Shown here in pieces: positions 27,616 through 47,904 of a stretch of 64,000 nucleotides of DNA. Under the pieces are notes generated by a model. That model was not told where the DNA came from. It saw only the letters and a program-made list of their open reading frames with translations, and made no database searches. The stretch covers positions 1,679 through 65,678 of the forward strand of contig JAIXUV010000080.1 of assembly GCA_027483345.1 (NCBI GenBank), given 5' to 3'. The translations under genes and the position numbers were made by a program. Origin of the DNA: Verrucomicrobiales bacterium. GTDB lineage: Bacteria > Verrucomicrobiota > Verrucomicrobiia > Limisphaerales > UBA9464. Within the stretch, counting starts at the first letter, position 1, and every line of letters begins with the position of its first letter.

Positions 27616-29142
27616 CTATGGATTAATGTCGCGAAGCAGCATAGAAAAAAGCGCGGATGCCGCCACACTGTCTGGCTCCAGTTTTGATTCATCCACAAAC
27701 TTTTTCATAGCAAGAGCCGGGTGAACCAGGTTTCTCCATTCCCTTAGTGTATGATTTGGCTCAGGATACGCGCCTTTTATCTTCAGTTTTCTTGCAACAT
27801 TAATGAGATTAAACAGGCTCCACGTCAGTGGATCGGTTTCAATCTCGCGACCAAAGTTCGCCTTCTTTGTCGTATCTGATTCAGCCTTCGCCGCGTTTAC
27901 GGCGGTTTGCAGTTGGCCGGGATTCACACTTAAATGAAGATCTATGAGTAGAGCCTCCATAGCGGAGCCGAATCCAGTCAAAGCAAGCCTATAACTCTCG
28001 TTGCTGTGTGCTTTCACTGCACCGCCGTATGCTGAGAAGCATATCTCTCTCAAGTCCGGATTCTTCATGAAGGCCAGCGCGGTCTTTTCAATTGCGAAGA
28101 CCGATACCTTGCTTGGAGCGACGGTTGCAGCAACTGGAGGTACGAGTTGTGGGCTGGCCTTTGCGACCTGTTGGTAGAGTGAGTTGCGGAATATGAGTTT
28201 TGCATCCTGGCGCTTTGCGAGCCCAATCACTTGCAGAAACGTGTAATCGCTGTCCGCCGGTGCCACGTCAGTCGATCCTTGCTGAACCATCTGCGCGACC
28301 TTTTGGACCAGATTAGTATTCCCAACTATTTTGCTAAATATGCCTTCCAGGTGGGAGCCAATTGAATGCGGAAGGTTCTTTAGCGCTTCCGCGAACGCGA
28401 TCTCAATGGGGAGTTCGCTCTTGCGAAGCGTCTCCTGGAATACAGTTTGAAGAAGGTATGGTTGGCCATTCAAAACATCATGCGCCGCTTTGACGTGGTC
28501 AACCACCGACGGATTAACGGATCTGGCCAACTCGATCGCCTGTTCCAGCGTTATGTCATCAGTGTAAACAGTTTGGCAGACGTTAAATGGTGAATTCCTC
28601 TCATCCACGAGCGTCTCCGGACGGAATGTTCCTGAAAAAACGAAACGAATACGGGACGCGATCGAGTCGGTACTGGCGTCAGCTCTTAAACTCGAGATCT
28701 GACGAATCTGTCCATAGAAGGAGTTTCGATACTGAGGGTTCTCAATACTCCCGGCTTCATCAATGATGATTGCGACCGGTGCTGCTGCTGGCGGGAATGC
28801 CGCTTCCAACCATGCAGCCACTTCGCCCCGATCTTCTATCCTCGGCCGCGGTATGGCCCTCCGGATGTTGCGACCAATTTGGTCGGTGAAGCAGCGTAGC
28901 AAGTCTTCAAATGCTGGACAGGGAGGAAGTCCCTGCAGGTCCACAAGGGCTGCTGTAAATCCGGCCTCCCGTAATCTATTGTTCAGGCGGACAAGACCGG
29001 AACTCTTTCCGTGTTGGCGAGGCCCGAGCAACAGCACCCATCGTCCAGCTGTAATCTCTCCGAAGACCTTTTGTTCGAAGCCCCTTGGAATATAAGCAGC
29101 TGAATCAAGCGGCACGGCTCCTTGGTTGTAGAAATCGCTCAT
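27616..29142 (-). CDS. STAND/AAA_35-like P-loop NTPase with a C-terminal HEPN-like domain
   Basis: Walker A LLGPRQHGKSSGL, Walker B VAIIIDEAGSI, NGQPYLLQTV helix. C-terminal LREWRNLVHP (Rx6H). Last gene of the PT operon, with a 4-nt overlap to the upstream gene. Confidence 0.6.
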   Translation of the reverse strand: MSDFYNQGAVPLDSAAYIPRGFEQKVFGEITAGRWVLLLGPRQHGKSSGLVRLNNRLREAGFTAALVDLQGLPPCPAFEDLLRCFTDQIGRNIRRAIPRPRIEDRGEVAAWLEAAFPPAAAPVAIIIDEAGSIENPQYRNSFYGQIRQISSLRADASTDSIASRIRFVFSGTFRPETLVDERNSPFNVCQTVYTDDITLEQAIELARSVNPSVVDHVKAAHDVLNGQPYLLQTVFQETLRKSELPIEIAFAEALKNLPHSIGSHLEGIFSKIVGNTNLVQKVAQMVQQGSTDVAPADSDYTFLQVIGLAKRQDAKLIFRNSLYQQVAKASPQLVPPVAATVAPSKVSVFAIEKTALAFMKNPDLREICFSAYGGAVKAHSNESYRLALTGFGSAMEALLIDLHLSVNPGQLQTAVNAAKAESDTTKKANFGREIETDPLTWSLFNLINVARKLKIKGAYPEPNHTLREWRNLVHPALAMKKFVDESKLEPDSVAASALFSMLLRDINP

Positions 29143-31769
29143 TTGAGTTTGATGATGTATTGCTCGATTAGCTTTTCCACTGAACCGTAGAACTTTACAG
29201 CGTCAAGAAACCATTCGAGCCTCAACTTGTATCCGGATGCGTTAGAATCAGTGATTCCATACAGCTCGATCATCCGAAGGCCAGCCATAATGTCTGAATC
29301 GGGGCGCGGAATCTCTTTCGATTGCAGGTATTCGCGACAGGACTCCAAGGTTGTTCTGCCTGTTGCGATCAGCATTGTGAGAAGTCGCTCCAATGACGTA
29401 GATTGGCCCCAATAGGTCTCGAGGTAGTGTTCGGCGTATGAATAAGTATCCGCAATTTCGAGGAGGTCGCCAGAAGTCACGGAAGCTCGTGATGCGGGCG
29501 ACCTTTCATTAAGGAGCCCGACGAGACGATCGCCAAGTGTTTGCAATAATTGAGGGTGACCATTAGTCCGATTCCAAGCCACGGAGGCAAACTGATCTTT
29601 GTCGGCGATTGTAATCTGCATAGCCTGTAGGGGCTTCATAAGAAGCTGCTGTGCCGACGCTCGATCAATTTGTCGCAGCATGACGGGGGCGCAGAAATTC
29701 CAGTGGGGAGACTGAGGATCCCACACACGGCTTGAAATCATTCTTTCTCCCGAGAAAACAAATTGTGCTTCACCTTCTTGAGAGACAGTTCTACATGCTC
29801 TAAAGAATGCCTCTGGAACCTCTTCACTCGTGTGCTGTTTGTCCCAATCAAGCAGTTGATCAATTTCGTCAAGAAAGATGACCACTTTTGAACTCGTTGC
29901 TTTCTTAAGCTGCTTCACCAGATCAAACACATTTGCAGGACGAAATTGGTTGGTCGGCTTCACCTGCCAAGCCCTTTGAGCCATCGCAGCAAAATCAGTC
30001 CAATCGCGAACGGTCTGACAGTCGCCGAAGTAGGTCTCAAATCCGGCTTCGCGAAGCCTTGCGGCCGCATGTCGCATCAGAGACGTTTTTCCAATCTTGC
30101 GCCCGCCAAGGAGCGCAATGCTATTTGAAGCGAGCGTCGATACCATGTCGGCCTCTTCCTTTTCGCGACCGTAAAACATCCTTGTGGGCGTTACACTACT
30201 CACAACAAATGGACTGGCCTTCACCAGGTCCGATTGTTCGAGGGCTTGACGTGCCAATATTGCTAGCGGCGGCTCCTTAGATTGCGCAATGGTCAACAGG
30301 AGAGAGGCGTCGAGAACGATTACGCTGGATGTGAGAGATCTCTGCAAGAGCCTAAGTCCGGAAGCGGTTGAGACGTCAGGGGGCGTGGGACAAAGGAGGA
30401 CTGCGATTTTAGATTCAGGGTCTGTGGAAAGGGCGACGCCGGAGATTCTTTTGAATAAATCTGAATTCGCGACAAGCGAGGAAGCCGCGACCACAAGTCG
30501 TTTCGGCAATATATCGCCCCCATCTTTAAGACTCTCCACCGCATAGGTGATGCCATTGTGTTGAGCAATGACTGGCAAGCTGCCACCCGTAGCCATAAAG
30601 AAACACTCTATGGCCTTCTCCGATTGGAAGGCCTTGTTTAATCCGCTTGCCATAGTAACTAGTTCCTTCCTCCTCCAACCGAGGACGACTCCTGTTGGAT
30701 TTAGTGCCAAATCCAATTCTTTGTTCTCGTTCGCATAGGCGGCCAAGGCAATTCTGGCCTGATCGGGCTCATCGGGTAACTCCGTAGTTGAAATGCTTCC
30801 TTTCGAAGTGATTGCAGCGTGAATGAGTTCCTTCAAAGCCCGTCTTTTCCGAGTGGGTGGAGGCGCGGCCGCTAAGCGCAGCATTTCTTGCAGCAATTTT
30901 CCGGATGCGGCTTGTTGGAAGGTCATGCAGCTTGCCACACCAGACATTAGGCTTTGGAGAACAGAATCGCGCGCTCCGCGGACACCCCTACCATCAGCGA
31001 CAAGAATAAGGTTTAGACCATACTCCGCCAAATCTCGCTGCAAAGCTGGATATTCATTTGAGAGTTGAGTCTGCTGCCTTCCGCCGAGAGCTGTTTGAAA
31101 CAGGCTTGTGACTGCAATGCTTTGTCGCGAGCCCACAGCTAACACAGCCTCAACTTTGCCGCGGACGCCAGGAGCCCATTGAGCCTCGGGTTGGATTTCG
31201 ATGACTATATTGTGATTCTGATTGGCCTCAGCGATCGCTTGCTTTAGAACGCTCTGCAAACGTTCTTTAATTGTCGATCCCACACGATATCTTCGATGGC
31301 CTGCGTCCTGACTCAGAAGGGTTATTTTTACAAGGTCTTGAACACTCACTCCCGGTTTAACAATCCTCCCGAAACCCAAGTCAATCAGCAGGGAGGCAAT
31401 ATCTGAATAACGAGATGCCGGGGGTGGGCGGGTTGAATCTGGAAGTTCGCGTCCGTCGCCGAACCCGATTTCTCCCTGTGGAAGTGCCAAAAGAGCGACG
31501 GCCACTTGATACAGGTTTGAGTGTTCGCGGAGACCTTTTTCCAGCGCTTCCTTAGTAAGTACCGTTTCGGAAGTTAGTGATTGGAGAAAGCTTATCGCTC
31601 CTTGATAGCGGGACAAATTCCTTTCTATTTCGGGCCATCCGATATAAGTGCCGATGTCGAAAAGGTCGGGCGTTATCGACTTCCGCAGTTCCTCAATTTG
31701 TTGGGAATTGATCACACTATTTAGATTTGCGTTGAAATTAGGGTGCAGGCTTCGGTAACGCCCCGACAC
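29139..31769 (-). CDS. 876-aa protein: unknown ~530-aa N-terminal region plus a STAND-like P-loop NTPase (paralog of the 508-aa neighbour)
   Basis: Walker A LLGGRKIGKTSLMRH, Walker B VVIFLDEIDQLL, NGHPQLLQTL helix. The N-terminal half has no motif I recognise. 32-nt overlap with the cysteine desulfurase gene. Confidence 0.6.
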   Translation of the reverse strand: MSGRYRSLHPNFNANLNSVINSQQIEELRKSITPDLFDIGTYIGWPEIERNLSRYQGAISFLQSLTSETVLTKEALEKGLREHSNLYQVAVALLALPQGEIGFGDGRELPDSTRPPPASRYSDIASLLIDLGFGRIVKPGVSVQDLVKITLLSQDAGHRRYRVGSTIKERLQSVLKQAIAEANQNHNIVIEIQPEAQWAPGVRGKVEAVLAVGSRQSIAVTSLFQTALGGRQQTQLSNEYPALQRDLAEYGLNLILVADGRGVRGARDSVLQSLMSGVASCMTFQQAASGKLLQEMLRLAAAPPPTRKRRALKELIHAAITSKGSISTTELPDEPDQARIALAAYANENKELDLALNPTGVVLGWRRKELVTMASGLNKAFQSEKAIECFFMATGGSLPVIAQHNGITYAVESLKDGGDILPKRLVVAASSLVANSDLFKRISGVALSTDPESKIAVLLCPTPPDVSTASGLRLLQRSLTSSVIVLDASLLLTIAQSKEPPLAILARQALEQSDLVKASPFVVSSVTPTRMFYGREKEEADMVSTLASNSIALLGGRKIGKTSLMRHAAARLREAGFETYFGDCQTVRDWTDFAAMAQRAWQVKPTNQFRPANVFDLVKQLKKATSSKVVIFLDEIDQLLDWDKQHTSEEVPEAFFRACRTVSQEGEAQFVFSGERMISSRVWDPQSPHWNFCAPVMLRQIDRASAQQLLMKPLQAMQITIADKDQFASVAWNRTNGHPQLLQTLGDRLVGLLNERSPASRASVTSGDLLEIADTYSYAEHYLETYWGQSTSLERLLTMLIATGRTTLESCREYLQSKEIPRPDSDIMAGLRMIELYGITDSNASGYKLRLEWFLDAVKFYGSVEKLIEQYIIKLK

Positions 31770-32898
31770 TTGCGATCGCCTTTCTCGGGAGCGTCTGAAG
31801 CGCCTGCAAAAGGCGCGAAATATCTTCAGCAGTTGAGAATCGCGACAAGCTAACTCTCAATGCACTCAGAGCTATTTCGTGAGCAACATGCATCGCCATT
31901 AGCGTCTTTGATGGGTGAATAGCACCTGAAGAACAAGCTGCACCTGTCCCCACGAGTATTCCGGCGGAGCCAAGAATATCAACAGCATCTCCGGCAACGA
32001 TGCCAGGCAGTGAAAAGAATGTAGTGTTTGGTAGACGCGGGGCCCGAACAGAATGGATAATCACATCCGGGAATATATCTATTAACCGTTGTTCGAACTC
32101 GTTTCGCAAACTCTGAATGTGCTCAGACATGTCTGCGCGGGCTTCGTGTGCTGCCTGGGCCAACCCCGCAAGTCCAGCGGTATTGAGTGTTCCTGGCCTA
32201 AGGCCTTGCTGTTGTCCTCCGCCTAGCATCATCGGGGCGATGTCGATTCCGGGGCGCACATAAATCCCTCCCACCCCCTTTGGTGCGTGACATTTATGAC
32301 CTGAGAATGAAAGCAGGTCAATATCGTGCCATTTACCCTGTAAATCTATGGCGTTCTTTCCTACCGCCTGGGTGGCATCTGTGTGGAAAAGCGCGGCTGG
32401 ACATCGCTCGCGGATGATTCGGCCAATTTCCTGAATTGGCTGAAGAACTCCTGTCTCGTTATTTGCGGCGATTACCGAAACGAAGAGTGTGTCGTCTCGC
32501 AGCGCATTGCTAAGAGCATCCAATCGGATAACACCATCTTGATCCACCGGCACTTCGATCAGGTCCAGACCACCTTTGGCTAACTCACGCGCAGGCTCGG
32601 TGATCGAGGGGTGTTCAATTGCCGAAATGATAACTCGCCCCGTTCCCTTCCCCCTGCAGGACGACATCAAGACCCAGTTGTTTGACTCTGTTGCGCCGGA
32701 CGTAAAAGCGAAGCAATTCGGCTCCTCGGCGTTCAATAAGTGTGCCAACGCTCTCGCGGCATCCACTCTTGGTTTGTCTGCTCCTGTAAATGGCGCGGAT
32801 GAGGCGTTGAAATAGCAATCCCCTAAATACGGCAAAACCGCATCAATTACCGTTTGTGACGGCCGAGTCGTAGCGTTGTTGTCGAGATAAATCAGCAT
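31738..32898 (-). CDS. class-V aminotransferase / cysteine desulfurase (SspA/DndA/IscS-like)
   Basis: MLIYLDNNATTRP start, PLP-lysine motif SFSGHKCHAPKG, 386 aa. Confidence 0.9.
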   Translation of the reverse strand: MLIYLDNNATTRPSQTVIDAVLPYLGDCYFNASSAPFTGADKPRVDAARALAHLLNAEEPNCFAFTSGATESNNWVLMSSCRGKGTGRVIISAIEHPSITEPARELAKGGLDLIEVPVDQDGVIRLDALSNALRDDTLFVSVIAANNETGVLQPIQEIGRIIRERCPAALFHTDATQAVGKNAIDLQGKWHDIDLLSFSGHKCHAPKGVGGIYVRPGIDIAPMMLGGGQQQGLRPGTLNTAGLAGLAQAAHEARADMSEHIQSLRNEFEQRLIDIFPDVIIHSVRAPRLPNTTFFSLPGIVAGDAVDILGSAGILVGTGAACSSGAIHPSKTLMAMHVAHEIALSALRVSLSRFSTAEDISRLLQALQTLPRKAIASVGALPKPAP

Positions 32899-32904
32899 GA
32901 CTTG

Positions 32905-33840
32905 TTATTCTCGAGCTGGGGCGAGGAACACTTGTTCCGTGTGCCATTTTGTGTAGTCAACCTTTGGCATGTAGCTATCCCGATTTGGTTTCAACAAAGG
33001 CTTTTTGTGGAAACGTCCAAGATTTTCCACGAACCCTTCCGATCCATACGCCTTCTCTGAAATCAATACACATCCCGCTTGATTAATTGTAAACGCCCCA
33101 CGGTCAAACAGCTTGTGGTGCAAAGAACATAGTGCAAGACCGTTTTCGCGAATGTCCGGTCCTGCTGCTTGATGCCATTTAATGTGAGCGGCTTCCAGTG
33201 CAATTGGAACATGTCCGATCCGAACATTAAATCCGCAAACGGCGCAGCGATACTCATAAGCAGACAAAACCATTTCCCTGAACTCCGGATCGCGGTTGTT
33301 GCTTCGTTGCATGCCACTTGGAATTACCAAGCCCAAGGAGAGCAGTATATCCTCATGCAATGTCTCCGGGAAATGAGATTGCAGCAGTGTGTCAATAACC
33401 TTCGCGCGCAATTCATCGTTCTGCCTTAGTTCATTGTAGACGTCTTCTTGAAATCCTCCCTGTGCTTTCGAGGAGAGGAGCGCGCGGCGTGAGGGATAAC
33501 CATTCCCGGGTCTCAGAGTCGACAATGCGGAACGGACTTCCCAGATGCCCTTCTCGCTTTGCAAGGCCCAAAACGGGTATTCCGGATGACATACTTTGCG
33601 TGGCGGGCCAAACTCCGTAAGCAGCCGACGAAGGGGATTCTGGATCTTGTCAAATGGAACTAGTCGCTGGTTCTCGGTGAAAAGCTCTGAGATTGCCAGC
33701 AGGCATAATAGAGGCTTGTGAGGGGCACGTTGGCCAGCTTTGCGCCAAACGGAAAGGGAGCGAAAGCGATGCGCAACATCTTCCTCTTTCAAGAGAGACG
33801 AAACTTCAAGGGTAGGACGTTGTCGCGCTTGGTTACGCAT
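32905..33840 (-). CDS. SBD-HNH endonuclease (ScoMcrA-type phosphorothioate-DNA-binding domain plus HNH)
   Basis: N-terminal RAPHKPLLCLLAISEL and HPEYPFWAL (Y-P-x-x-A sulfur-pocket motif). C-terminal HNH CAVCGF...LEAAHIKWH...NGLALCSLHHKLFD. Start set at the ATG at 33840, which overlaps the dptH-like stop (ATGCGTAA). Confidence 0.7.
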   Translation of the reverse strand: MRNQARQRPTLEVSSLLKEEDVAHRFRSLSVWRKAGQRAPHKPLLCLLAISELFTENQRLVPFDKIQNPLRRLLTEFGPPRKVCHPEYPFWALQSEKGIWEVRSALSTLRPGNGYPSRRALLSSKAQGGFQEDVYNELRQNDELRAKVIDTLLQSHFPETLHEDILLSLGLVIPSGMQRSNNRDPEFREMVLSAYEYRCAVCGFNVRIGHVPIALEAAHIKWHQAAGPDIRENGLALCSLHHKLFDRGAFTINQAGCVLISEKAYGSEGFVENLGRFHKKPLLKPNRDSYMPKVDYTKWHTEQVFLAPARE

Positions 33841-36800
33841 CGGTTTTGCTCGCGGGCCTTCCGTGTTGCAGACGTATGAGGCGCACAATCTGAGGAACCG
33901 TGGTTTCGATATCAATAAAGGGCACTTGGGCGAAGATCGGATCAGCCGCATCTCCCGTCTTGGCGAGCATGTGACCTCGTCCGAGCAACCTCTCCGCACC
34001 TGAGTTCTTGCTCCCCATGGCGATCTCCGCGGTTCCAGCATTATCGACCTTGAGGATTAGCCGGTTCCCGAGCTGGGAACGGAGTTGCATCGGCATCACG
34101 TCCTTGTCCGGTCTCTGGGCGGCGAATAGCAGAAAAATTCCGGCGGCTCGCGCCTTCACACTCAGGCGTCCGACGATGTTGGGTACCGAGTCTTTGTAGT
34201 CCTCGGTCTGCATCCAGTCAGCGAACTCGTCGTGGATGATCCAGAGTGTCGGCAGCGGCTTGCCAGTCGCGCGACGGTAGCCGTGGATGTTGGCGACTTT
34301 GGCCTGCTTGAAGAGTTCGTAGCGCGCATTCATCTCCTCGACTAGTCCTCCGAGGACCTGCACAGCCGTTGCGGGATCATCAATGATGCCACCTGAACCG
34401 ACTTCCACGTGTGGTAACTCGTCGAGCGGACGGTAATCCACACCATACTTCGGGTCGATGAGGTAAATATGCGCCTCCTCCGGTGAGCGGGTAGCGGCGA
34501 TGCTCAAGATGAGGTTTTGCATCAGCACGGATTTTCCGCTTCCCGTGATCCCCGCGATGAGAGTGTGGGGTTGGTTGAGCGGGTCCAGTAACAATGGTTT
34601 GCCATCCTCTTCGCGGATACCGACGCATAGCTTTTCGCCAAGCATACCCTCGCTGTAGCTACGAAGATAGGCGAGGAGCACGGGTTCTGTGTGCAGGACT
34701 TGCCGATTCGGACGCTCCACGGCGATGGAAACTCGTCCCGATTCGGGAGTGGTGTTGATGATCTTGATTCCATCAGACGTGTATATTTCATCCACGCGTG
34801 ACTCCACCGCTTGAACGGTGAGATCCTTTGATCCCTGCAACTTAATGATGCCGGCATTGGGGGTAAGAATCGGCGCCAGACCTTCGATAAGCTTGGCGGG
34901 AAGTCCTCGTGTGACTAACGCCTGCCGGAGTTGCACAGTAGTCGCCTCAAGCCATGACCGGCCTTCTTCTTCCGTGCTCTGAAACATCGCTGCGCGCGAT
35001 TCGAGCAAGGCAATCAGTGGTGCCGACGATGCACGGGCAGTGCTGCCATGCGTTGCGCTGGAATCGGCGACTTGCTTCTCAACCGAACCGGGGACTTGCA
35101 CACCTGACGCCGCGCTCGGAGGCGTGACTAGCGCGGGCGGTTCCGGGTTAAGCGCTGCACCGGATTCACCCTGCGTGTCATCGGGCGGATTCTTTTGTTC
35201 ACTCTTCTTTGACGGTGCCTTGCCCTCAGCCTTGCTGGCCAAGTGGTAGAGCTTTGATTTTCCGAACGCAGGATGGCCATTGCGCAGACGTAGCTCGGCG
35301 GTCGCCTTGTGGTTGGCGTCGTGATAGTGAATCAGGAGTTCGCGAACATGCCCTGGCCCGAAAGTCTCCTGAAGCGAATCGAGGCCAGCCCTTCCTTTTC
35401 CAGCTGGGATTCCCTTAACCGTGGAAACTTGCGCAGTGAGATCGTGCGGCTCGTTCACGAAGACATGGGAGTATCCCCAAATGCGGACGGTGCATTGACG
35501 CTGCCGGATCGCTCGACGCCAAGCAACGGTATCCAAGGGCGGCTGACCGGGCGCGACGACTGTTTGGGAAACAAGAAGGTCAGACAGTCGAGCCAGCCAG
35601 ATGTCTTGGTCGATGGTGCGAGCCTCCCCGTCCATCGCCTCGGTCAACTGAGAGAGTGTGTCCATCAGTTGCTTGGCCGAAGTGCTTGCCGCTCCACCTA
35701 GCGCGTCATGCGTGACGAACTTCGCCTCCGTCACCACAACGTCGAGGTGCTTGGAGCCGTCGGCATTCGTCTTCGGTGCGAGCACGAGCAGATCAGCGAT
35801 GTTAGCCCCTTCTTTCTTGCCTAGCCATTGGCTGTAATCGTCAAGAAAGCACCAAGCGATTGGTCGACCCGCGCCCAACTCCGATTGGACGAGGTAGCGA
35901 GAGAGCACCATGCCGAGTAGCTCGTTGGTGTTGTTCGCTCGGCGGGCTGCCTTGAGAACGAGGCCGCCAGAAATCTTGTTGGCATCCTCCATGAAATGCT
36001 TGCAGAGACGGTCGATGACATCCACAGGTGTATCCGAGGCCAACAACGCCTTAAGCTTCTCCTTGAGCGTGTTCACCAGCAGAGTCTCGCGGGCATCCGA
36101 GGAAATGATCAGGTTCCGTCCGTGCGTCGCGGACTGGACGTAGCGAATGACTTTAACGTGTTGTGCCTCCAAAAGCTTTCGGTCGAGCAGTTCGTCCTGA
36201 TTTACCACCCAATTCGCAAGTTCGTGTGTCTCCCGGAAAATGCGCTCAACCCTCTGATCGTCGAAGTCGAGACACCGCATGAGCACGGGACACTTGCCAA
36301 CCACCCATGCATCATCTGCGCCGGGCGCGCACAGGACTGCAAGGGAGTAGAGGTAAGCCCATCCGGTTTCCGTCTGAGCGGGGCAGGCGAGTTGGAGGCG
36401 GACTTTCCTATCGCCCTCACTCACCGGAAGGCGACGGCTCCATTGGTGAGGTTGGAGTTCTTGCGGAGTAGCGGTCTCCCTCGAGAGCCACTCCCAAACG
36501 GGTTTCGCCTCACGGGAAATCAAATCGCGGCAGTATGCAATATCAACCGGCTGCGAACGGCCTTCGCGGCGCAATCGGTTGGCCGCGGTGATGTTCACGC
36601 GGACCTTGGCGAGGAAATCACCGGAGGCTTCTGTCGGATCCGCCTCGGTATCCACGCCTCGCGCCACAAGATCGCGATAAATCTGCCGCAAGTGATCTTC
36701 ATCCCGATGCATGAGCAGCACCTGGCAGGTGATCTTGTCATCCTCCCGTTTCGCATTGATGCGGTTGATACTCTCGACTACCGCGGTCGGTAGATCTGGA

Positions 36801-39289
36801 GAGTCGCAGTTGTAGAGTAGCACCGAAAAGTTGTCCCGCTCGTGCGGCTGGAGCCGGAGATATTCGATCATCTCGTGCTCAATCGCTGCGGCGGCGGTGC
36901 TCGACTCATCATCGAGAGAAGGCATCGCCGACTCGCTCGATGGCTCGGGCGGTTGATGCAGGGTGTAACCGGCAAAAGCCTGCGTCACGACACGAGGAAG
37001 CGCCTGGGTGTTCTCCCAGACCACCGTCATTTCGGGATAGAGAGGGTGTGCGAGAAGTTGTTCCACTTCCCGGAAGAAAAGCGCCCCAGTAGTGCCATCC
37101 GAGAATGGTGGCCGATCCTTCACGAGCAGCTGTTCGATCAGACCGAGGACCTGTTGCTGACGGCCTGTTGCGGCTTCCATGCGCAACGGGTGCCACGGGC
37201 AAATGACCGTCATGGGAGGACGCCTCCCAGAGCGCTGCACTTGGGCGAGGCCCACCCTCAAGACGATGCGCAGCAGTTGCCGTCTAGCATCCTGATGTTT
37301 GATGCCGTTGATGGTAAGCAGCAGTGCTCGATACCTGGCAGCGACATCGGCAACCTTTTCGCCAGCTAGGGCGCTTTTGCGCAGCGCGAGCACGGCCTCG
37401 GCATATACGGATTCAAACCTGGCAAAGTCCGCCGAAAGCTCCGAGATCTGGTCGGGCAACAGCCAATGGCGGGAAGCGGCGCCCTCTAGCGTTTCCTTCC
37501 ACTGGGCGGCCAGGGATTTGATGCGGTCTTGGGCCGGAATGAATGCGCCACGCCCTCCGCCGCGAGCCACGTCTGCGAAACCTTCCACGCTCTCAAGTGA
37601 CAGCGAAACCGGCAGCCCTTTTCGACCGACGACTTCGTATTCAGCTACGCACTCGACCAAGGCAGTCCCGCGTTGCGCTTGATAGCGGCAAATCGCATCG
37701 AAGTCGGCTGCCTCCTGCCCAAGGACTGAACCGATTGGAAACTTCCAAGATAGCGACAACGTAACAACCTTACGATCCATTCCACCTCGCTGCTTTTGAA
37801 AGACCGAGACGAAGAAGTTCAGGGTCGTTGCCCGTCCCGACTTGCTTGCCCCCTTGAACTTTGGCTTGTCTTTAATCTTCGGGAGAACGTCTTGGGAGTA
37901 GTTGCAAACCAGGGTTTCGGAGAACTGAATCTTCTTTTTGGTGCGAATTTCGAGAGAGCCGTAGGCGCGTTCGAAGAACTCGCAGGCGCGCTGGTTCATC
38001 TCCATGAAGCTGTTCGGCTTCTTTTGCTGCCGCCCTTCAATGACGACATAGGCCCCTTCGAGAGACGACAATCCGCGAATCGCGCGCTGCACGCACTCGA
38101 AGATGCCCTGGAACAGGTCCACACATTCGATCTTCTTCCCGTGAACAAAGTCCTCCCATTCGAGATAAAGAGGGGTGTCCTTCTCCAGTGCATCCGTCCG
38201 GCGTTCAAAAAACTCTCGGAACTCCTCCGATGCGGAGCCGGGCTTGCGCGCGACTTTGGTGAGAGCGTGAAGCACTAAATCGTCGTCCGGCGTAGGGGTG
38301 ATCGCTTCGGCCTCCAAGGCGCTGCGCGTTCGCTCAGCAAAATCCTTGGCAGAGGTCTTCTTCGCTCGGTCGAAACAATGATTGGTGTGATTCCAATCAA
38401 ATTTGAAGAGCAGGTTCCCTGTCGCGGAATTCCTCGTGCCTGTGGATTCGATGTAATCGTGAAACGCAGCCAGGACCGGATCTGGAATGGGCGGCTGCTG
38501 GTCAGGCGACCGAAGTTGAGCGAGCCGACCCCGAAGAACATCCGGGTCCAAGAGTTCCTGGGCTAGCCCGCGCTTATCGAGGTAGCACTCCAGCGAATAG
38601 TGGCTCTTGAACTTGGCCGCCCACTGCGATGGCTGCGCCATCTTTGCTTCGTTCAGTGAACTGAAGCAGTCCTCGAACAGAGGCAGACCAATAATCGGAA
38701 GAGCTTTTCCCGCAGCACGGTTGAGAACTTCGCCCCTGTGAAAATGGGTAAGAACCTCGGTAAGAAACTCCCCGGCTTTCGCCGTCGGGCAGCGTCCGGT
38801 ATCGAACAGGCCCTTGAGCATCGCCTCTGCTTTCCTGCGGTCTTCTGGCAGAAGATTGATGCCGACGTTCTTGGCAACGAAATCGATCCAAATGTGCGCG
38901 ATCTCCTTGGCCTTCAAATCCGAAGCGTCGGTTCTGTCGCTATCGGCAAGTGACGCTTCTGCGTCGTTCTCCACTTCTGCAGTGAGGGTCACTGAACCAT
39001 CGCGCTCCCGATTGCGGACATTCACTGACGACTCAGTCGTCGTGTAGGAAGGATCAACGCCGTGTCCGCGCAATTCGAACTCAGGAAACTTGATTTGGAG
39101 ACGCGTGGCTCTGGCACCGGCTGCATCCTTCGCTCGGATAAAGCCGACCAACTGCTCCGCGGAGAATCCGGAAAGGACGTGAAAGGCGCCCCGAAAATCC
39201 GGATCCTCCTCAAGCTGCGGCCTGAGTTTAAGCAAGACGTATTCAAGTGCGATGGCCCCCACCAGGGCGTCGGGTGCTTTGATGCTCAT
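33833..39289 (-). CDS. dptH: DptH/DndH-like giant restriction protein with a C-terminal FtsK/HerA-type ATPase
   Basis: 1818 aa. C-terminal motifs IAGITGSGKSVLMQNL, LWIIHDEFADWM and FAAQRPDKD. Size and third position in an F-G-H-like trio. ATGA overlap with the upstream gene. Confidence 0.6.
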   Translation of the reverse strand: MSIKAPDALVGAIALEYVLLKLRPQLEEDPDFRGAFHVLSGFSAEQLVGFIRAKDAAGARATRLQIKFPEFELRGHGVDPSYTTTESSVNVRNRERDGSVTLTAEVENDAEASLADSDRTDASDLKAKEIAHIWIDFVAKNVGINLLPEDRRKAEAMLKGLFDTGRCPTAKAGEFLTEVLTHFHRGEVLNRAAGKALPIIGLPLFEDCFSSLNEAKMAQPSQWAAKFKSHYSLECYLDKRGLAQELLDPDVLRGRLAQLRSPDQQPPIPDPVLAAFHDYIESTGTRNSATGNLLFKFDWNHTNHCFDRAKKTSAKDFAERTRSALEAEAITPTPDDDLVLHALTKVARKPGSASEEFREFFERRTDALEKDTPLYLEWEDFVHGKKIECVDLFQGIFECVQRAIRGLSSLEGAYVVIEGRQQKKPNSFMEMNQRACEFFERAYGSLEIRTKKKIQFSETLVCNYSQDVLPKIKDKPKFKGASKSGRATTLNFFVSVFQKQRGGMDRKVVTLSLSWKFPIGSVLGQEAADFDAICRYQAQRGTALVECVAEYEVVGRKGLPVSLSLESVEGFADVARGGGRGAFIPAQDRIKSLAAQWKETLEGAASRHWLLPDQISELSADFARFESVYAEAVLALRKSALAGEKVADVAARYRALLLTINGIKHQDARRQLLRIVLRVGLAQVQRSGRRPPMTVICPWHPLRMEAATGRQQQVLGLIEQLLVKDRPPFSDGTTGALFFREVEQLLAHPLYPEMTVVWENTQALPRVVTQAFAGYTLHQPPEPSSESAMPSLDDESSTAAAAIEHEMIEYLRLQPHERDNFSVLLYNCDSPDLPTAVVESINRINAKREDDKITCQVLLMHRDEDHLRQIYRDLVARGVDTEADPTEASGDFLAKVRVNITAANRLRREGRSQPVDIAYCRDLISREAKPVWEWLSRETATPQELQPHQWSRRLPVSEGDRKVRLQLACPAQTETGWAYLYSLAVLCAPGADDAWVVGKCPVLMRCLDFDDQRVERIFRETHELANWVVNQDELLDRKLLEAQHVKVIRYVQSATHGRNLIISSDARETLLVNTLKEKLKALLASDTPVDVIDRLCKHFMEDANKISGGLVLKAARRANNTNELLGMVLSRYLVQSELGAGRPIAWCFLDDYSQWLGKKEGANIADLLVLAPKTNADGSKHLDVVVTEAKFVTHDALGGAASTSAKQLMDTLSQLTEAMDGEARTIDQDIWLARLSDLLVSQTVVAPGQPPLDTVAWRRAIRQRQCTVRIWGYSHVFVNEPHDLTAQVSTVKGIPAGKGRAGLDSLQETFGPGHVRELLIHYHDANHKATAELRLRNGHPAFGKSKLYHLASKAEGKAPSKKSEQKNPPDDTQGESGAALNPEPPALVTPPSAASGVQVPGSVEKQVADSSATHGSTARASSAPLIALLESRAAMFQSTEEEGRSWLEATTVQLRQALVTRGLPAKLIEGLAPILTPNAGIIKLQGSKDLTVQAVESRVDEIYTSDGIKIINTTPESGRVSIAVERPNRQVLHTEPVLLAYLRSYSEGMLGEKLCVGIREEDGKPLLLDPLNQPHTLIAGITGSGKSVLMQNLILSIAATRSPEEAHIYLIDPKYGVDYRPLDELPHVEVGSGGIIDDPATAVQVLGGLVEEMNARYELFKQAKVANIHGYRRATGKPLPTLWIIHDEFADWMQTEDYKDSVPNIVGRLSVKARAAGIFLLFAAQRPDKDVMPMQLRSQLGNRLILKVDNAGTAEIAMGSKNSGAERLLGRGHMLAKTGDAADPIFAQVPFIDIETTVPQIVRLIRLQHGRPASKTDA

Positions 39290-40851
39290 TCGCGTGAATC
39301 CATCGGGTTGATGACGTAGGTGCAGGCGTCGCTCATGCGGTGCGCCAGACCCATGCCGATGAGGTGCTGAGCAAGCCTGTCTCTGTTCTTTTTGAAATCA
39401 GTTTCGTCGAAGAGGTAATTGAGCACCTCTGCCTTCGCTTCCGTCGGGCCAATCACGATCCGATAGCGTTTGTGGATGTGATTCAAGAAAGCGCTCTCCT
39501 CCAGCGGTGCATTCACGTTCGCAAGCACCAGTGCGCGAAGGAGGTCATCCGTGGGCGCGTAACGATAGCGGTTAGTTCCTCGTTTCGAGGCCAAGCCACA
39601 TCCAGTGGCGAGCGCGGTCAGACCATCAGCCGTCCCATTACGATATAACCGATCTGCGAAGCTGTAGAATTTCTGCGTGAGCGTCTTAGCATCGGGCGCT
39701 TCGAGACGATCCTTCTTGAAGGCGCAAGTGCGAACGAGGTGGTCCGCCAAGTAGTCCTTCTTCGCCAAATCATCTAGCGCGGGATCGGCAAGCGTCTTGT
39801 GGAGTTCGGGGTCGGAGAAGGCCGACTCGTCGATGAACTTGCGGACAGCCATGGCACCAAGACTGTCGTTCTGGAGGTATGAGCCAACTGCCGCTTTCCT
39901 TACGAGATCAGATTTTGGCGCGAGAATTTCACAGATGATCGAGGGCAATTGCGCGTCACCCAGCAAATAGTTCGCAGTCTCGATTCCGTAGAGATAGAGA
40001 TGCAAACCGAGTAACGGCTGTAGATATTGAAAGGCGTCTTGGTCCGGAAGATTCAAACTCAAGATCGCAGCAACGTCATTTGCCATCCGGTCGAATGCTG
40101 GGTGCCTTTTGTAAGGAAGGTATGTCCCTCCCTTCAGGTCACCGCGATCAGGTTCGGGCGACGAGATTAATCGCAGGACCAGTTTGTTGCGTGAAGTATT
40201 CGGGTCGAACGAGGGCGCCAGACTTTCCCGAATCCTAGTGCGTAGTGGTTCAGAAGCGCGCGAAAGCATCAGATACGCGAGCTCACCTGTCCGCGTGAAT
40301 ACGCGCCTTGTTCTTTCAAAGCCTTCGCCCTTTTCCAAAATGGCTTCGTAGAGTGCTGCTGGCCCGATTGGGAAAACGAACTGTGTTGTCCAACTGCGCT
40401 CGCTACCTGGATCTACCGTGATACGGCGCAGTAGCCGGACCACGCTGACCAACTCAGCAAACGTGTCGAAGCGATCGCGAAGATACGAGAAATCTGCCGT
40501 CAGGTGTTCTCCAAGCGAAGCGCCTTCCTTCATTACTCGCAACCAAGTGCTCCAACCCTCCTCGTCGCTCCCTTGAGCATTTCGGAGGATCTCCTCCATC
40601 CGAGGATTGTTGAAAAGCAGGTTACGGAGTTGCAGAGATCGATTGGCAACGTATTCGGGGTTCTCTCCGGGGCGGGTTTCGGAGAGCAGCTTCCCTTGAC
40701 GAAACATCCCCTCCGCCATGCCGAGAAATTCGAGCATCAATGCTGAGAACGGCTGGCGCTCCAAACGGTGGCCCCAAATCGCTTCGGCGATCCATGCCTC
40801 ATTTCTGTCCTTCGAGCCAAAGAACTCCTCGGTGTTTTCTGGAGAAATCAT
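39286..40851 (-). CDS. dptG: DptG/DndG-like protein (middle gene of the trio)
   Basis: 521 aa, no enzymatic motif recognised. The call rests on size, position and ATGA coupling on both sides. Confidence 0.45.
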   Translation of the reverse strand: MISPENTEEFFGSKDRNEAWIAEAIWGHRLERQPFSALMLEFLGMAEGMFRQGKLLSETRPGENPEYVANRSLQLRNLLFNNPRMEEILRNAQGSDEEGWSTWLRVMKEGASLGEHLTADFSYLRDRFDTFAELVSVVRLLRRITVDPGSERSWTTQFVFPIGPAALYEAILEKGEGFERTRRVFTRTGELAYLMLSRASEPLRTRIRESLAPSFDPNTSRNKLVLRLISSPEPDRGDLKGGTYLPYKRHPAFDRMANDVAAILSLNLPDQDAFQYLQPLLGLHLYLYGIETANYLLGDAQLPSIICEILAPKSDLVRKAAVGSYLQNDSLGAMAVRKFIDESAFSDPELHKTLADPALDDLAKKDYLADHLVRTCAFKKDRLEAPDAKTLTQKFYSFADRLYRNGTADGLTALATGCGLASKRGTNRYRYAPTDDLLRALVLANVNAPLEESAFLNHIHKRYRIVIGPTEAKAEVLNYLFDETDFKKNRDRLAQHLIGMGLAHRMSDACTYVINPMDSRE

Positions 40852-42686
40852 TGTTCTGCGAGGTGGATAGGGAGTCGTTGAATCGTGCCAGTCCCGTGAA
40901 CTTCGATCAGGTGCAACGATCGTGAGCTTGCTTTGAGTCGAAGGTCACGGAGGCAGCGTTGTTTGAGCGACATGAAGTCGGCGCAAGATTCCCGCGAAAA
41001 GCTCGACGGCATGGCGCCATCCGCCACGCGGCAGAGGAACTCAAAGCGGGGAAGCGTGAGATGGAATCGAAATTCCCTGCCGTTGGTGCGGAGCAACGCT
41101 TCGGGGACACTGCCGGACTCTTTACGAAGGATCTCCAGGCCGGGCGGGTCCGAATCCAATTCGAGTTGTGCGAGGTGAATGTCACTCACTGGCGACGTCG
41201 TCAGGTCGAGCCCCGTGGCGAGATAGACTTCGTTGGCATTCTCCGCGAGCAGCAGACCGGTCCAGATCCGGTTCAGCCCCGATGCAAGTTTGCGGAGATG
41301 CAGACGGGCTGGTGTTTTTCCTTCCTCAAGCGGTTTGAGGATTTCTTCGAGGTATTCCCGCGCGTGATGGAAGACGGTGATTTTCCACAGCAGATATTTC
41401 TGAAGCTGCGCTTGGGACGCTTGAAGGAAAACTCGGCGTCGCTCAGCGGCAAGCTCGGCCAAAAAGAAGGACATTTCTTCTTCGTCGTTGATGTCGCCGC
41501 GGATGTAGCGCTTGAGCAGGGCATCGAAATCCGGGTTTCGCTGACTAAAGGTGTCAGGCAAGACCAGTTCGTCATGCGCCGTTTTGAGTTCTCCGTCTCT
41601 CGTTCCGAAGATGAGGAGTTCGTCGAGATCATTGGTCGTCTCATCTCCGACGTGGAGCATGGAGAGGAAGCGGTACACTTCACGCTTCCGCCGGTTGCTG
41701 ACGGTGAGGTTTTCTCCAAAAAGTGTCCGATGCAGAGCGGCTTTATGAGCTGTCCTGGACTTCCCGATTGTATTGGCTTCCGCTCCCGGGCGAATGACTC
41801 GGTCTCTGGCGTCGGGATGTCCTAGCAATGCGTTGGAAAGCAAGCAAAGCACCCCTCGCGTTGGCAAATGATGGCCCGTCACATCCGCAATGCGCGCCAG
41901 CATGATGAGCTTGGCCCTCACTTCGGGAGTATTGAGAGCGCGATAATTCCTCGAAAGCGACGAAGACTCCGAGAAGAGGGGCTTGTCGCTCTCTTCTGTG
42001 AAACAGACCCATTCCGGACGGTCGAGAACGGCACCAAGGCAGAGGCTCATGATCTGTTCGCTTGGGACCATGCTCAGATTGATGAGTCGAAGGCGATTGC
42101 CGCTGTCCCTTTCGCAGCGCGCGTGAAGGCCAATCAAATTTTTCTGTAGCCTGCGAACGAGTTCGGGCGTGTCCGTCGGCAGGGCCCGAAACAACTCATG
42201 CATCTGGCCGTCGTTGACGGCTAGGACAAAGAACTCTTCGCTTTCGGCGAACGCAGACTCCGCCATCCTGGCGAGCACGGCGACGTGTTCCGGGCTGAGG
42301 TGACCGTTCGTCTTCTTCCGCCATGCGGTGACATCGTAGATCAAGGTAATCGTGCGCCGTCCTGCGTGAGTTTCGACGGCGACGATTTCAATCCCGCTGT
42401 GTCCCTCGGCGGACTTCCCGGTCAACGCTTGTACCAACTCAAAGCAGAGCGAGGTTTTCCCCTCTCCAGCGGTACCCGTCAGCACTACATTGCGAAATGA
42501 GCCTTTGGAGACTGGAAAACAGTCGAGGATGAGCTGTAGCGCTGGATGATTGAAGGCGAGCTTGGGAACGCCATAATGAGCGGCCAATTTACCGACATGC
42601 TCCGCTTGCATAGCCTCGTTGTCCGCGACAGGACCGTAGGCCCTTAGCAACCGAATCCATTTCTCTCCTTTGGTGAGCGCTGACAT
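40848..42686 (-). CDS. dptF: DptF/DndF-like P-loop ATPase
   Basis: Walker A VVLTGTAGEGKTSLCF about 100 aa from the N-terminus. Start set at the ATG at 42686 (MSALTKGEKW), 13 nt after the sspD-like stop. Confidence 0.5.
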   Translation of the reverse strand: MSALTKGEKWIRLLRAYGPVADNEAMQAEHVGKLAAHYGVPKLAFNHPALQLILDCFPVSKGSFRNVVLTGTAGEGKTSLCFELVQALTGKSAEGHSGIEIVAVETHAGRRTITLIYDVTAWRKKTNGHLSPEHVAVLARMAESAFAESEEFFVLAVNDGQMHELFRALPTDTPELVRRLQKNLIGLHARCERDSGNRLRLINLSMVPSEQIMSLCLGAVLDRPEWVCFTEESDKPLFSESSSLSRNYRALNTPEVRAKLIMLARIADVTGHHLPTRGVLCLLSNALLGHPDARDRVIRPGAEANTIGKSRTAHKAALHRTLFGENLTVSNRRKREVYRFLSMLHVGDETTNDLDELLIFGTRDGELKTAHDELVLPDTFSQRNPDFDALLKRYIRGDINDEEEMSFFLAELAAERRRVFLQASQAQLQKYLLWKITVFHHAREYLEEILKPLEEGKTPARLHLRKLASGLNRIWTGLLLAENANEVYLATGLDLTTSPVSDIHLAQLELDSDPPGLEILRKESGSVPEALLRTNGREFRFHLTLPRFEFLCRVADGAMPSSFSRESCADFMSLKQRCLRDLRLKASSRSLHLIEVHGTGTIQRLPIHLAEQ

Positions 42687-42699
42687 AGCTATGGTGGTA

Positions 42700-43551
42700 T
42701 CAGAGTTGGCAGAGCAGGCATCCTTCGCGCCGCCGTGGCGCTGCTTCGAGACCACCAAGAGTCTGAGCCAGCGAACGGTTCGGCTGGCGTTTTGCAAGCC
42801 GTTCTTGAGTCTTGCGCCAATTCTCTTCGATTTGAGTCATACGAGTGGGTTGCTCCAGGTCTGCGAGTGACTCGTCGCCGCACCAGTAAAACACATTGCC
42901 ATTCACGCGGTTTGGCTTCTCGTAAGCCTTGGCCTGCTCGTAGTATTCCGGGTAGCGCTGCTTCAGGCGAACCCACTCGATCTTCTGCTGGTAAAAGCAA
43001 AAGAAGCAGCCGCTTCGAGTGCGCCCCCACTCTGTGTAGGGAGGCATACCGAGACCCGAATTTTCAAGGATTCGCTGAACGCCCTCGTAGTCAATCCCGT
43101 CTTCTCGAAACGGAAATGCCGCACGAATGTTTGGCTTGTGACTGATGTAACCGACCCGCTCCTCATCCGCTCGAATGCCTACGTAGTTAATGCAAAAGCC
43201 GCTACCAATATAATCCTCAAAGGGCTTTAGTTTCATCAACTCGGTGCACCATCTCCGATGACTGGAGGGGAGCATCCCACCTTTCATGCGCAGCAAATGA
43301 TCAAACGTAGTTCCGAAAGTCGTTCGGACGATCTTGCGGCCCAGATACCCTTCCAAGCGCTCTAGATATTCGTAGGTGTCTGGGAGTTCCTTCGCAGTAT
43401 CATGGAAGATGTATTCCATGTTCGTCACACGATCGCGTAGATAGACTGCGAGCGCCGCGCTGTCCTTGCCTCCGGAAAGACTCAAGACATGACGAACCAT
43501 GGCGGGGTCTTCCGGCCATTTATTGTCCCGAACGAGAGCTTGAGTCGTCAT
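42700..43551 (-). CDS. sspD: PAPS-reductase/PP-loop ATP pyrophosphatase, short form (SspD-like rather than DndC-like)
   Basis: PP-loop VLSLSGGKDSAALAVYL, C-terminal cysteine motif GCFFCFYQ. At 283 aa it is much shorter than the ~500-aa size I recall for DndC. Confidence 0.75.
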   Translation of the reverse strand: MTTQALVRDNKWPEDPAMVRHVLSLSGGKDSAALAVYLRDRVTNMEYIFHDTAKELPDTYEYLERLEGYLGRKIVRTTFGTTFDHLLRMKGGMLPSSHRRWCTELMKLKPFEDYIGSGFCINYVGIRADEERVGYISHKPNIRAAFPFREDGIDYEGVQRILENSGLGMPPYTEWGRTRSGCFFCFYQQKIEWVRLKQRYPEYYEQAKAYEKPNRVNGNVFYWCGDESLADLEQPTRMTQIEENWRKTQERLAKRQPNRSLAQTLGGLEAAPRRREGCLLCQL

Positions 43552-46947: not shown

Positions 46948-47904
46948 CTAGAGGAATCGTGGTTTCTCGTAAGCGCCATGCAGATCGGCGTGGCCATCGC
47001 TTCGGCGAAGCCTTTGGAGTTGGCGCAGATTTGACGATTCGGTGACCTGAAAGATATGTGGCTGTGTCTGCGCTAAGTTGGACACGCGTTGCAGAATCTC
47101 GCTTTCTGCAATTCTCAGGATGCGTCCGGGACTGTGGCGCCCCGCGACCAATTCCCGCAACGCAACGGTCTGCTCGGAAGGAAAAGCCCGATTCCACCAG
47201 TCGTGAACAAAGAATGCGAAAAGCTGCTGCGGGATGGCTGTCTTCGGGCCGGCATCGAACGCATAGAGCGTCTCCCATTTCCCGGCTGTATTTTGCCTTT
47301 CACCAGCTTCTTGAATCAATCCAAGAACGGACAGGGCGCAGTCGAGGTGATCTTCTCCTCGCGTCCCACGCGGCGGGCGGTAGCTGTGAAGAAAGACTTC
47401 CCAATGCTGTTTGAGCGTGATGAGCGAAGCAGCCCTTTGATTTTGCTCGGCCTCCTTTCGGAATGCTTCGACCACGGCGCTGCTACTGAATTCTATGGTC
47501 GGCCAGCGATTGAATAAGCACTCCCACGCGAAAAAGGGCGCACTTCTGTTCGTGCTGATGAGCCAGTGGAGCAGCCAATTGCTGGAGTGATCTTCGAGGT
47601 ACGGATCGAGACCGGCATTGGGGGCGAAAACCAATTCGCCTATAGGGCTCAAGACCCACCGGGTGTCCTCCTTCGAGGCGATCTGGAACGCCTCAATCCA
47701 GCATCGGAGCGCCTCTACCATGTTTTTACCAAGCCCGAGGGAGACGATGCCCTCATCAATGTTCGTCAGCGGATCCCGACCAGAACCAATTTCTCGAATC
47801 GCCTTCGGCAGCCACGCAATACGGAGGGGGAACGTTTGGTGCCCACTGAAGCGAAAGGCGGGAGCCTGAACCTGGGGCTGATTAATTGTGGACATCAAGT
47901 TCAC
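46948..47904 (-). CDS. sspB: DUF4007 family protein (SspB-like nickase)
   Basis: FRFSGHQTFPLRIAWLPKAI matches the DUF4007 N-terminal signature as I recall it. The start is GTG at 47904 or ATG at 47895. Confidence 0.65.
   Translation of the reverse strand: MNLMSTINQPQVQAPAFRFSGHQTFPLRIAWLPKAIREIGSGRDPLTNIDEGIVSLGLGKNMVEALRCWIEAFQIASKEDTRWVLSPIGELVFAPNAGLDPYLEDHSSNWLLHWLISTNRSAPFFAWECLFNRWPTIEFSSSAVVEAFRKEAEQNQRAASLITLKQHWEVFLHSYRPPRGTRGEDHLDCALSVLGLIQEAGERQNTAGKWETLYAFDAGPKTAIPQQLFAFFVHDWWNRAFPSEQTVALRELVAGRHSPGRILRIAESEILQRVSNLAQTQPHIFQVTESSNLRQLQRLRRSDGHADLHGAYEKPRFL

Follow-up and report, generated by a model that had tools for sequence, protein, structure and literature searches.

A putative phosphorothioate-dependent SBD-HNH endonuclease encoded between sspH and sspA in an SspBCD-SspFGH-SspA operon

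The 64,000-nucleotide stretch of contig JAIXUV010000080.1 from a Verrucomicrobiales bacterium that was analysed here (the window) contains an operon for the phosphorothioate (PT) modification of DNA, in the order sspB, sspC, sspD, sspF, sspG, sspH, SBD-HNH and sspA, followed by two ATPase genes (g876 and g508), all on the minus strand. The SBD-HNH gene (32905..33840, minus strand) encodes a putative PT-dependent endonuclease of 311 amino acids (aa) with the two domains of the EcoWI type, a sulfur-binding domain (SBD) and an HNH nuclease domain. We suggest, and give this reading an even chance of being correct, that the protein is an active EcoWI-type PT-dependent type IV endonuclease, that its gene is a dedicated but optional eighth gene of one SspBCD-SspFGH-SspA lineage in which it is translationally coupled to sspH, and that the nuclease spares the PT marks of its own host. 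The existence of a dedicated clade, purifying selection within this clade, and a writer that is unchanged with or without the gene show that nuclease and writer have been compatible over the long term.

Results

The SBD-HNH open reading frame (ORF) runs from an ATG at 33840 to a stop codon at 32907-32905. An earlier note, made from the letters of the window alone, had reported that this ATG overlaps the stop of the upstream 1818-aa gene, and it does so by 8 nucleotides (nt) (junction ATGCGTAA; TAA at 33835-33833). All motifs quoted in the note are likewise present in the translation, i.e. RAPHKPLLCLLAISEL (residues 38-53), HPEYPFWAL (85-93), CAVCGF (199-204), AAHIKWH (217-223) and CSLHHKLFD (238-246). 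A longer ORF of 378 aa from an ATG at 34041 was considered and rejected: it overlaps sspH by 200 nt, its extension is absent or unconserved in homologues, and the homologues start at or after the position that corresponds to 33840. The ORF and its SBD-HNH assignment are confirmed far above chance.

The protein is a new member of the curated NCBIfam family NF045808 ("phosphorothioated DNA-binding restriction endonuclease"), which it matches with 329.3 bits against a cut-off of 180 (E=1.7e-98) and over its full length (residues 21-305 on profile positions 2-283 of 284). The SBD spans approximately residues 18-170 (33331..33789, minus strand), as delimited by alignment to ScoMcrA, an AlphaFold model and conserved columns, and the HNH domain approximately residues 183-253 (33082..33294, minus strand), as delimited by Pfam HNH_2 (E=1.3e-11, residues 199-253) and invariant residues. 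By phmmer against the PDB the protein matches the SBDs of ScoMcrA (E=9e-11) and SprMcrA. The AlphaFold model, for which 38 homologues were used, has high confidence over residues ~18-170, with a predicted local distance difference test score (pLDDT) of 80-95; the HNH half was modelled poorly (pLDDT <50) and was left unused. Foldseek searches with the modelled residues ~18-170 returned the SBD of ScoMcrA (5zmo; template modelling (TM) score 0.82, root-mean-square deviation 2.4 A), SprMcrA (7ccd, E=4e-8) and Hga (8h0l), and relatives carry the precomputed Pfam domain PF26340, DNA-SBD_ScoMcrA. The N-terminal domain thus matches SBDs by family profile (NF045808), by sequence (ScoMcrA and SprMcrA) and by modelled structure, and the mismatch that the earlier note had named as refuting its reading was not seen. 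A three-domain ScoMcrA type was considered and rejected: between an SBD that ends near residue 170 and an HNH domain that starts near residue 183, no SRA (SAD) domain was found, HNH_2 being the only Pfam match at E<=0.01 in the 311 aa, and the architecture is therefore EcoWI-like SBD-HNH rather than ScoMcrA-like SBD-SRA-HNH.

Both functional sites of the protein are intact. In ScoMcrA the sulfur cavity consists of H116, R117, Y164, P165 and A168 (PMC6224610), and in a residue-level alignment these residues correspond to H41, K42, Y88, P89 and A92 of SBD-HNH; the change from R to K at position 42 is a common variant. Among the 38 homologues H41 and P89 are invariant and K42 and Y88 are conserved in at least 90%. 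Seven further residues (C199, C202, H219, N233, C238, H241 and H242) are invariant in these homologues and also in ~90 loci; C199, C202, C238 and H241/H242 are putative zinc ligands and H219 and N233 are predicted to be catalytic. The SBD pocket and the complete HNH domain that had been proposed for this protein are thus both in place. The loop by which ScoMcrA reads the bases of GpsGCC (S187RGRR191) aligns with PGNGY, which defines a putative loop R110-P-G-N-G-Y-P116. This loop is the most variable stretch across the SBD-HNH family, as is expected if it is the specificity determinant, and the replacement of SRGRR by PGNGY makes GpsGCC specificity unexpected here. The specificity itself is unreadable from the loop, and the presence of A92 or R92 is uninformative in this respect because ScoMcrA A168R still binds. 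The 311-aa protein has no match to SspE, DndB or DUF262 in PADLOC, Pfam and NCBIfam, and none to the DndI model of PADLOC.

The SBD-HNH family comprises at least 6796 proteins at E<=1e-10, and the closest relatives of the window protein (56-81% identity) come from metagenomes; the nearest named relatives are Verrucomicrobiota metagenome-assembled genomes. Loci for comparison were sampled as the best-scoring 80 or 50 and not at random, so that all fractions given here and below are indicative only, and genes in these loci were called crudely as longest ORFs supplemented by tblastn. In the clade of at least 56% identity, the gene lies between sspH and sspA in 13 of 13 readable independent loci (the window, L001, L004, L006, L092, L093, L095, L113, L114, L115, L140, L141 and L142), and in all eight loci whose junction was checked the sspH stop and the start of the gene share 4 or 8 nt. 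This identical slot, together with an overlap wherever the junction was checked, rules out that SBD-HNH is a chance neighbour in a defence island. The clade has an SBD signature of its own, in which PHKPLLC is joined by YPFWA, in place of the YPFWR of most family members, and by an NGYPT[RK] loop, in place of the SGDAKK found elsewhere. Pairwise ratios of nonsynonymous to synonymous substitutions (dN/dS) between operon-embedded members are 0.09-0.26 over the full length (0.165 for the window gene and its L001 orthologue), which argues for a functional protein and not a decaying passenger; together with the invariant catalytic residues these values rule out a decaying or inactive passenger for the clade. 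In L004/L005 (4597-10004), sspH shows signs of decay, being split into ORFs of 1110 aa and 438 aa with a small reverse ORF between them, and the SBD-HNH gene downstream is intact.

The gene is optional. SspG has closer relatives (up to 96% identity) than SBD-HNH, and 28 SspG-anchored loci span the sspH/sspA junction. SBD-HNH is present between sspH and sspA in eight of these (six after removal of near-duplicates), a divergent copy lies after sspA in one (L105, where it is disrupted) and before sspB in another (L128), and the remaining 18 loci, including the closest relatives L086 and L088, are without any SBD-HNH, which rules out that it is an obligatory component of SspFGH systems. The copy in L105 (8967-9859) consists of two ORFs, likewise a sign of decay. 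Between sspB and a point 20 nt short of the sspH stop, L086 and L088 align collinearly with the window, with 86-87% nucleotide identity over 14 kb and with 94-96% and 91-94% amino acid identity in SspG and SspH, respectively, yet they contain no SBD-HNH; instead, sspH runs straight into a different sspA (60-63% amino acid identity), with a 4-nt sspH/sspA overlap in L086. These near-identical operons without the gene indicate that neither the writer nor SspFGH depends on the nuclease, which is what one would expect of an add-on arm.

Two observations point to the origin of the gene. First, the 3' part of the window operon (SBD-HNH, sspA, g876 and g508) is closest to L001, with 79.4% nucleotide identity compared to 68.7% for the 5' part. 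Second, the G+C content at third codon positions (GC3) drops from 0.60-0.66 in sspB-sspH (33833-47904) to 0.50-0.53 in SBD-HNH, sspA, g876 and g508 (27616-33840), and this break falls exactly at the sspH/SBD-HNH junction, where the homology to L086 and L088 ends. From these sequence comparisons the junction marks a recombination joint at the 3' end of sspH, and the affinity to L001 and the GC3 drop show that SBD-HNH arrived on a swapped 3' cassette.

The genes after sspA vary as well, and comprise g876 and g508, or a 166-aa gene and a DndB-like gene, or others. Each module is found with and without SBD-HNH, which rules out a linkage of SBD-HNH to the downstream modules. In the window, g876 and g508 occupy 27616..31769 on the minus strand; by Pfam, g876 (876 aa) has a weak DpnII-like endonuclease N-terminus and an AAA_22/STAND-like ATPase, and g508 (508 aa) is an AAA_35 protein. 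The pair recurs after sspA in L001 (12126-16231), L006 (2270-2746), L108 (18095-21558) and L109 (18077-21552). Neither protein has a strong match to curated defence models, and the pair is a candidate for an extra effector or an independent defence pair. The alternative module consists of a 166-aa protein without a family match and a DndB-domain protein of ~412 aa (L004, 12114-13843) and is also present in L097, L098, L102, L104, L111-L115 and L125. In Dnd and in SspE, PT is regulated or sensed by DndB-like domains, and by analogy this module may have a regulatory or sensing role in the SspFGH lineage.

The seven ssp genes around SBD-HNH were assigned with PADLOC, and sspB, sspC, sspD, sspF, sspG, sspH and a cysteine desulfurase gene are all found in one co-oriented cluster. 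The PT writer is encoded by sspB (318 aa; 46948..47904; SspB, 364 bits), the ATPase gene sspC (1123 aa; 43555..46926; SspC, 1324 bits) and sspD (283 aa, PAPS-reductase-like; 42700..43551; SspD, 363 bits; Pfam PAPS_reduct). These are followed by sspF (40848..42797; SspF, 1028 bits, residues 48-619), which is listed with 649 aa and of which the true start is probably just downstream of the sspD stop, since the family match begins at residue 48, and by sspG (521 aa; 39286..40851; SspG, 517 bits). The product of sspH (1818 aa; 33833..39289) matches SspH (PDLC02806, 1765 bits, residues 7-1806) and has a C-terminal FtsK/HerA-type ATPase (FtsK_SpoIIIE), and sspA (386 aa, cysteine desulfurase; 31738..32898; SspA, 342 bits; Aminotran_5) starts 6 nt after the SBD-HNH stop. 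Wherever start codons are secure, the gaps or overlaps between genes are only a few nt. The claim that the nuclease is encoded inside a PT-writing operon is therefore borne out, these tightly packed genes including those for SspB, SspC, SspD and the desulfurase SspA. The description of the 1818-aa neighbour as dptH-like has to be replaced: no dnd-associated DptH/DndH match was found in NCBIfam at E<=0.01, and its best PADLOC match is to SspH over the full length, with no DndH or DptH model among its PADLOC matches, in what is a complete SspBCD-SspFGH-SspA locus. Scans for promoters and terminators gave matches at or below the shuffled background.

To place the window protein in the wider family, the best 80 loci were sampled with one genome per GTDB species; their SBD-HNH proteins are 43-49% identical to that of the window except in L006 (60%). 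Most of these loci encode a stand-alone SBD-HNH in a defence island that does not adjoin any PT writer, with HKD-helicase type IV enzymes, Nudix, Dcm/Vsr and DISARM-like genes as neighbours, and annotated plasmid examples are alike. In an approximate neighbour-joining tree, a sister clade of ~12 GTDB loci from Poribacteria and Gemmatimonadota (L022, L025, L030, L031, L040, L042, L049, L053, L059, L071, L078 and L079) has SBD-HNH immediately downstream of sspD, often with SspB and SspC upstream and, in L049, with a 4-nt overlap with the sspD stop. Neither SspE nor SspFGH was found within 10 kb in these loci. Several of them look decayed, with SspB or SspC missing or split. In the Poribacteria loci L053, L059, L025, L078 and L079, the sspD-SBD-HNH pair is kept while sspB or sspC are missing, split or several kb away; these pairs could be what is left of decayed Ssp modules, or could function as units of two genes in their own right. 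The genes downstream of SBD-HNH in sspD-linked loci vary and are related to defence, with a prokaryotic Argonaute in L049 (10902-12962) and a Schlafen/AlbA_2 gene in L022 (10985-12301), as is typical of defence islands.

The Ssp island of the window is surrounded by genes of a conjugative element at 52861-57020 (minus strand) and at 22185-23174, 23303-24613 and 11257-16188 (plus strand), among them genes for a TrwC relaxase-helicase (819 aa), a type IV coupling protein (549 aa), a second TrwC-like fragment, a Dcm-type cytosine methyltransferase and a 1643-aa methyltransferase-SNF2 helicase fusion. The window probably belongs to either an integrative and conjugative element or a large conjugative plasmid; neither a tRNA gene nor an obvious integration site was found within it. 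A gene at 25146-27419 (plus strand) belongs to a family of proteins of ~680-770 aa with a methyltransferase-like match below threshold only. Members of this family are neighbours of the ssp operon in at least 10 loci, including L001, L086, L088, L092, L104, L105, L107, L111 and L112, where their side and orientation vary, and the protein may be part of the island and not of the host backbone.

Discussion

The favoured reading, a type IV arm that spares the PT of its own host, can be phrased as a scheme in which (i) SspABCD would write single-strand (hemi) PT marks on the host DNA, (ii) SspFGH would attack PT-free DNA, (iii) SBD-HNH would bind PT in the Rp configuration via the conserved H-K/Y-P/A pocket and the HNH domain would cut nearby, and (iv) the hemi-PT sites of the host, whichever motif the SspBCD of the window may write, would be spared either through the divergence of the base-reading loop or because the nuclease needs PT sites that are paired or double-stranded. 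To our knowledge, CpsCA is the sole Ssp motif characterised so far. In this scheme, the operon would restrict unmodified invaders by means of SspFGH and foreign-PT invaders by means of SBD-HNH, the latter including phages and plasmids from Dnd or BREX-4 hosts or an element with a rival PT writer. The logic would be the same as that of BREX and the type IV enzyme BrxU, which provide complementary protection (PMC8565348).

The scheme builds on the properties of the relatives. The characterised SBD nucleases bind Rp-PT, cleave nearby and restrict dnd+ DNA (PMC7461809). EcoWI is an SBD-HNH protein of 33.4 kDa and a dimer that cuts GpsAAC/GpsTTC PT DNA and restricts dnd+ plasmids; it cuts full as well as hemi-modified GpsAAC/GpsTTC sites, and two sites work better (PMC7461809). 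Hga, described as the first PT-dependent enzyme reported for CpsCA, restricts hemi-PT Ssp DNA 10-fold as compared to 1000-fold for double-strand Dnd PT (PMC10602919). That many stand-alone family members in defence islands resemble canonical type IV enzymes also counts in favour of this reading.

Several points weigh against it. EcoWI cuts hemi-modified sites in its own sequence context (PMC7461809), and hemi-modification alone can therefore not guarantee that self is spared. The exclusion of self by sequence context is assumed. Moreover, a generic add-on has no obvious need for an invariable translational coupling to sspH, and its recurrence directly after sspD in sspBCD-only loci, with no further effector within 10 kb, would rather be expected of a cognate effector. 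Finally, we know of no documentation of phages with Dnd-type PT as a major threat in soil and peat, where most of the relatives were sampled.

The self-targeting problem that a PT-reading nuclease poses next to a PT writer was central to the earlier note and is real, but it is not new. The note offered two ways out of it, a nuclease that reads only a foreign PT context or an SspE-like sensor tuned by self PT, and Lutz et al. in 2020 discussed the same two (PMC7461809). These authors found that <3.6% of the predicted PT-dependent enzymes are near dnd and listed the same escape routes (PMC7461809).

In the main alternative, SBD-HNH would be a cognate PT-sensing effector like SspE or DndI, the SBD on the hemi-PT of the host licensing, positioning or restraining the HNH domain against invader DNA without PT; it would be the sole restriction partner in loci with only sspBCD and, in the window, a second effector whose gene shares a transcript with sspFGH, in analogy to dndI and dndFGH. 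The linkage of the gene to Ssp writers is recurrent, tight and independent (between sspH and sspA in 13 of 13 loci, after sspD in ~12, and in L105 and L128), and the known systems offer precedents: SspE is a PT sensor joined to an HNH nuclease (PMC13251355), DndI senses PT and is co-transcribed with dndFGH (PMC11662687), SspE and SspFGH coexist and give additive protection (PMC8092258), and Aravind's group has suggested that for many Dnd writers the true restriction partner is an SBD-containing HNH protein (PMC10853773). However, SBD-HNH is without the nucleoside triphosphatase (NTPase) switch domain by which PT sensing is coupled to release or licensing in SspE and DndI, it matches neither the SspE nor the DndI model of PADLOC, and every characterised SBD nuclease cleaves PT DNA and not non-PT DNA. 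Also, most of the sampled family members are not beside any PT writer, and several of the sspD-linked loci appear decayed. On balance, we regard a cognate effector as a possible but rather unlikely alternative. Slightly more doubtful still is the more specific proposal that sspBCD and SBD-HNH constitute a minimal PT defence system not described before (as in L049, L071 and the Poribacteria loci), with a DndI-like role of the nuclease in SspFGH operons and with self hemi-PT being read by a classical SBD without an NTPase switch.

Alternatively, with the same biochemistry as in the favoured reading, SBD-HNH may serve the mobile element rather than the host, by killing cells or incoming DNA with a rival PT writer (Dnd or BREX-4), as ScoMcrA does with a dnd cluster, and thereby keeping Ssp the sole PT system. 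The location of the window on a conjugative element (TrwC relaxase, type IV coupling protein, Dcm, methyltransferase-helicase), the arrival of the gene on a separate 3' cassette (GC3 0.50 as compared to 0.60-0.66 for sspB-H), its patchy distribution among near-identical operons and the ability of SBD nucleases to block transfer of dnd clusters are all consistent with such a weapon. Yet the vertical co-residence of the gene with sspH down to 56% identity and the purifying selection equally fit a role that benefits the host, and the two readings are inseparable by sequence alone; we consider the weapon unlikely. A PT binder that does not cut and is regulatory or protective, or a weak and tolerated nuclease, as Lutz et al. 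suggested for Bsp48385I, which is encoded beside dndA-E/FGH (PMC7461809), is very improbable: the one dnd-linked enzyme tested by these authors had only residual, PT-independent activity, and they raise tight binding without cleavage as a way to restrict DNA (PMC7461809), but H219, N233 and the Cys/His zinc ligands are invariant in the clade and in the whole family, dN/dS is 0.09-0.26 over the full length and, save for the one disrupted copy in L105, no decay of the active site was seen.

Returning to the type IV reading, the protein is most similar to the EcoWI type (NF045808; PMC7461809), with which it shares the two domains, a similar size (311 aa compared to 33.4 kDa), the H-K/Y-P pocket and a CCCH-type HNH domain, and it is ~38% identical to E. 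coli proteins annotated with the family name of NF045808. However, the characterised members of this type are stand-alone proteins in PT-free hosts, whereas the window gene is coupled to sspH in a PT-writer operon and its clade has its own SBD signature. ScoMcrA and SprMcrA (SBD-SRA-HNH; 5zmm, 5zmo, 7cc9) share with it the SBD fold (TM 0.75-0.82), the cavity residues and the HNH effector, but SBD-HNH has neither their head domain nor the SRA domain, and while ScoMcrA is incompatible with the PT writer that it meets, SBD-HNH is co-inherited with one. SspE and DndI likewise combine a PT-recognising module with a nuclease (HNH in SspE) and are tied to a PT writer; they are not homologous to SBD-HNH, which has no DUF262/DndB-like GTPase or ATPase domain and a different fold of the PT pocket, and they attack non-PT DNA whereas the characterised SBD nucleases attack PT DNA.

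With respect to the operon, the window contains all seven genes of the SspABCD-SspFGH system of Wang et al. 2021 (PMC8092258) in the order that was published, with sspA last and an FtsK-like C-terminus of SspH. The prototype of Vibrio anguillarum FF-93 differs in having a three-gene FGH cassette and iscS, and its description does not mention an HNH or SBD protein (PMC8092258); the window in turn has SBD-HNH between sspH and sspA and optional modules after sspA. PT-reader-type HNH nucleases beside PT-writer genes have been described for other writers. In 698 taxa, Aravind's group found wHTH(SBD)+SAD+HNH genes in Dnd loci and suggested that their products serve as alternative restriction partners (PMC10853773), and in the BREX type 4 system of Bacteroides salyersiae mcrA lies between brxP and brxC (PMC12914056). 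Expression of brxP-mcrA-brxC in B. thetaiotaomicron was tolerated and PT was made, mcrA being dispensable for PT synthesis (PMC12914056). The BREX-4 mcrA adjoins the gene for BrxP, a homologue of SspD, as in the sspD-linked sister clade; the McrA of B. salyersiae is at most a putative SBD-HNH protein. In contrast to these Dnd and BREX-4 readers, the writer in the window is Ssp with SspFGH, the protein has two domains without SAD/SRA, and its gene has a fixed slot with a start/stop overlap. Among open-access papers and preprints on SspFGH, sspBCD or SspABCD in combination with HNH or SBD, the arrangement was not reported, and the dedicated clade between sspH and sspA, its optional, cassette-borne nature and the sspD-linked sister clade appear to be new.

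The coexistence of a PT writer and a PT-destroying nuclease in one cell is an acknowledged problem, brought up in 2020 (for Dnd), once more in 2024 and, by implication, in 2026 (for BREX type 4), and the locus described here extends this problem of writer and reader to the Ssp family. It also provides clean material, i.e. a clade found only between sspH and sspA, ~87% identical operons at the nucleotide level with and without the gene, and a sister arrangement with only sspBCD, which makes the paradox directly testable. If only foreign PT is read, PT systems would have arms against unmodified as well as against wrongly modified DNA, like methylation systems, and such SBDs could bring new sequence specificities for PT mapping tools. 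If self PT is read, the locus would represent a new effector logic for PT-based immunity.

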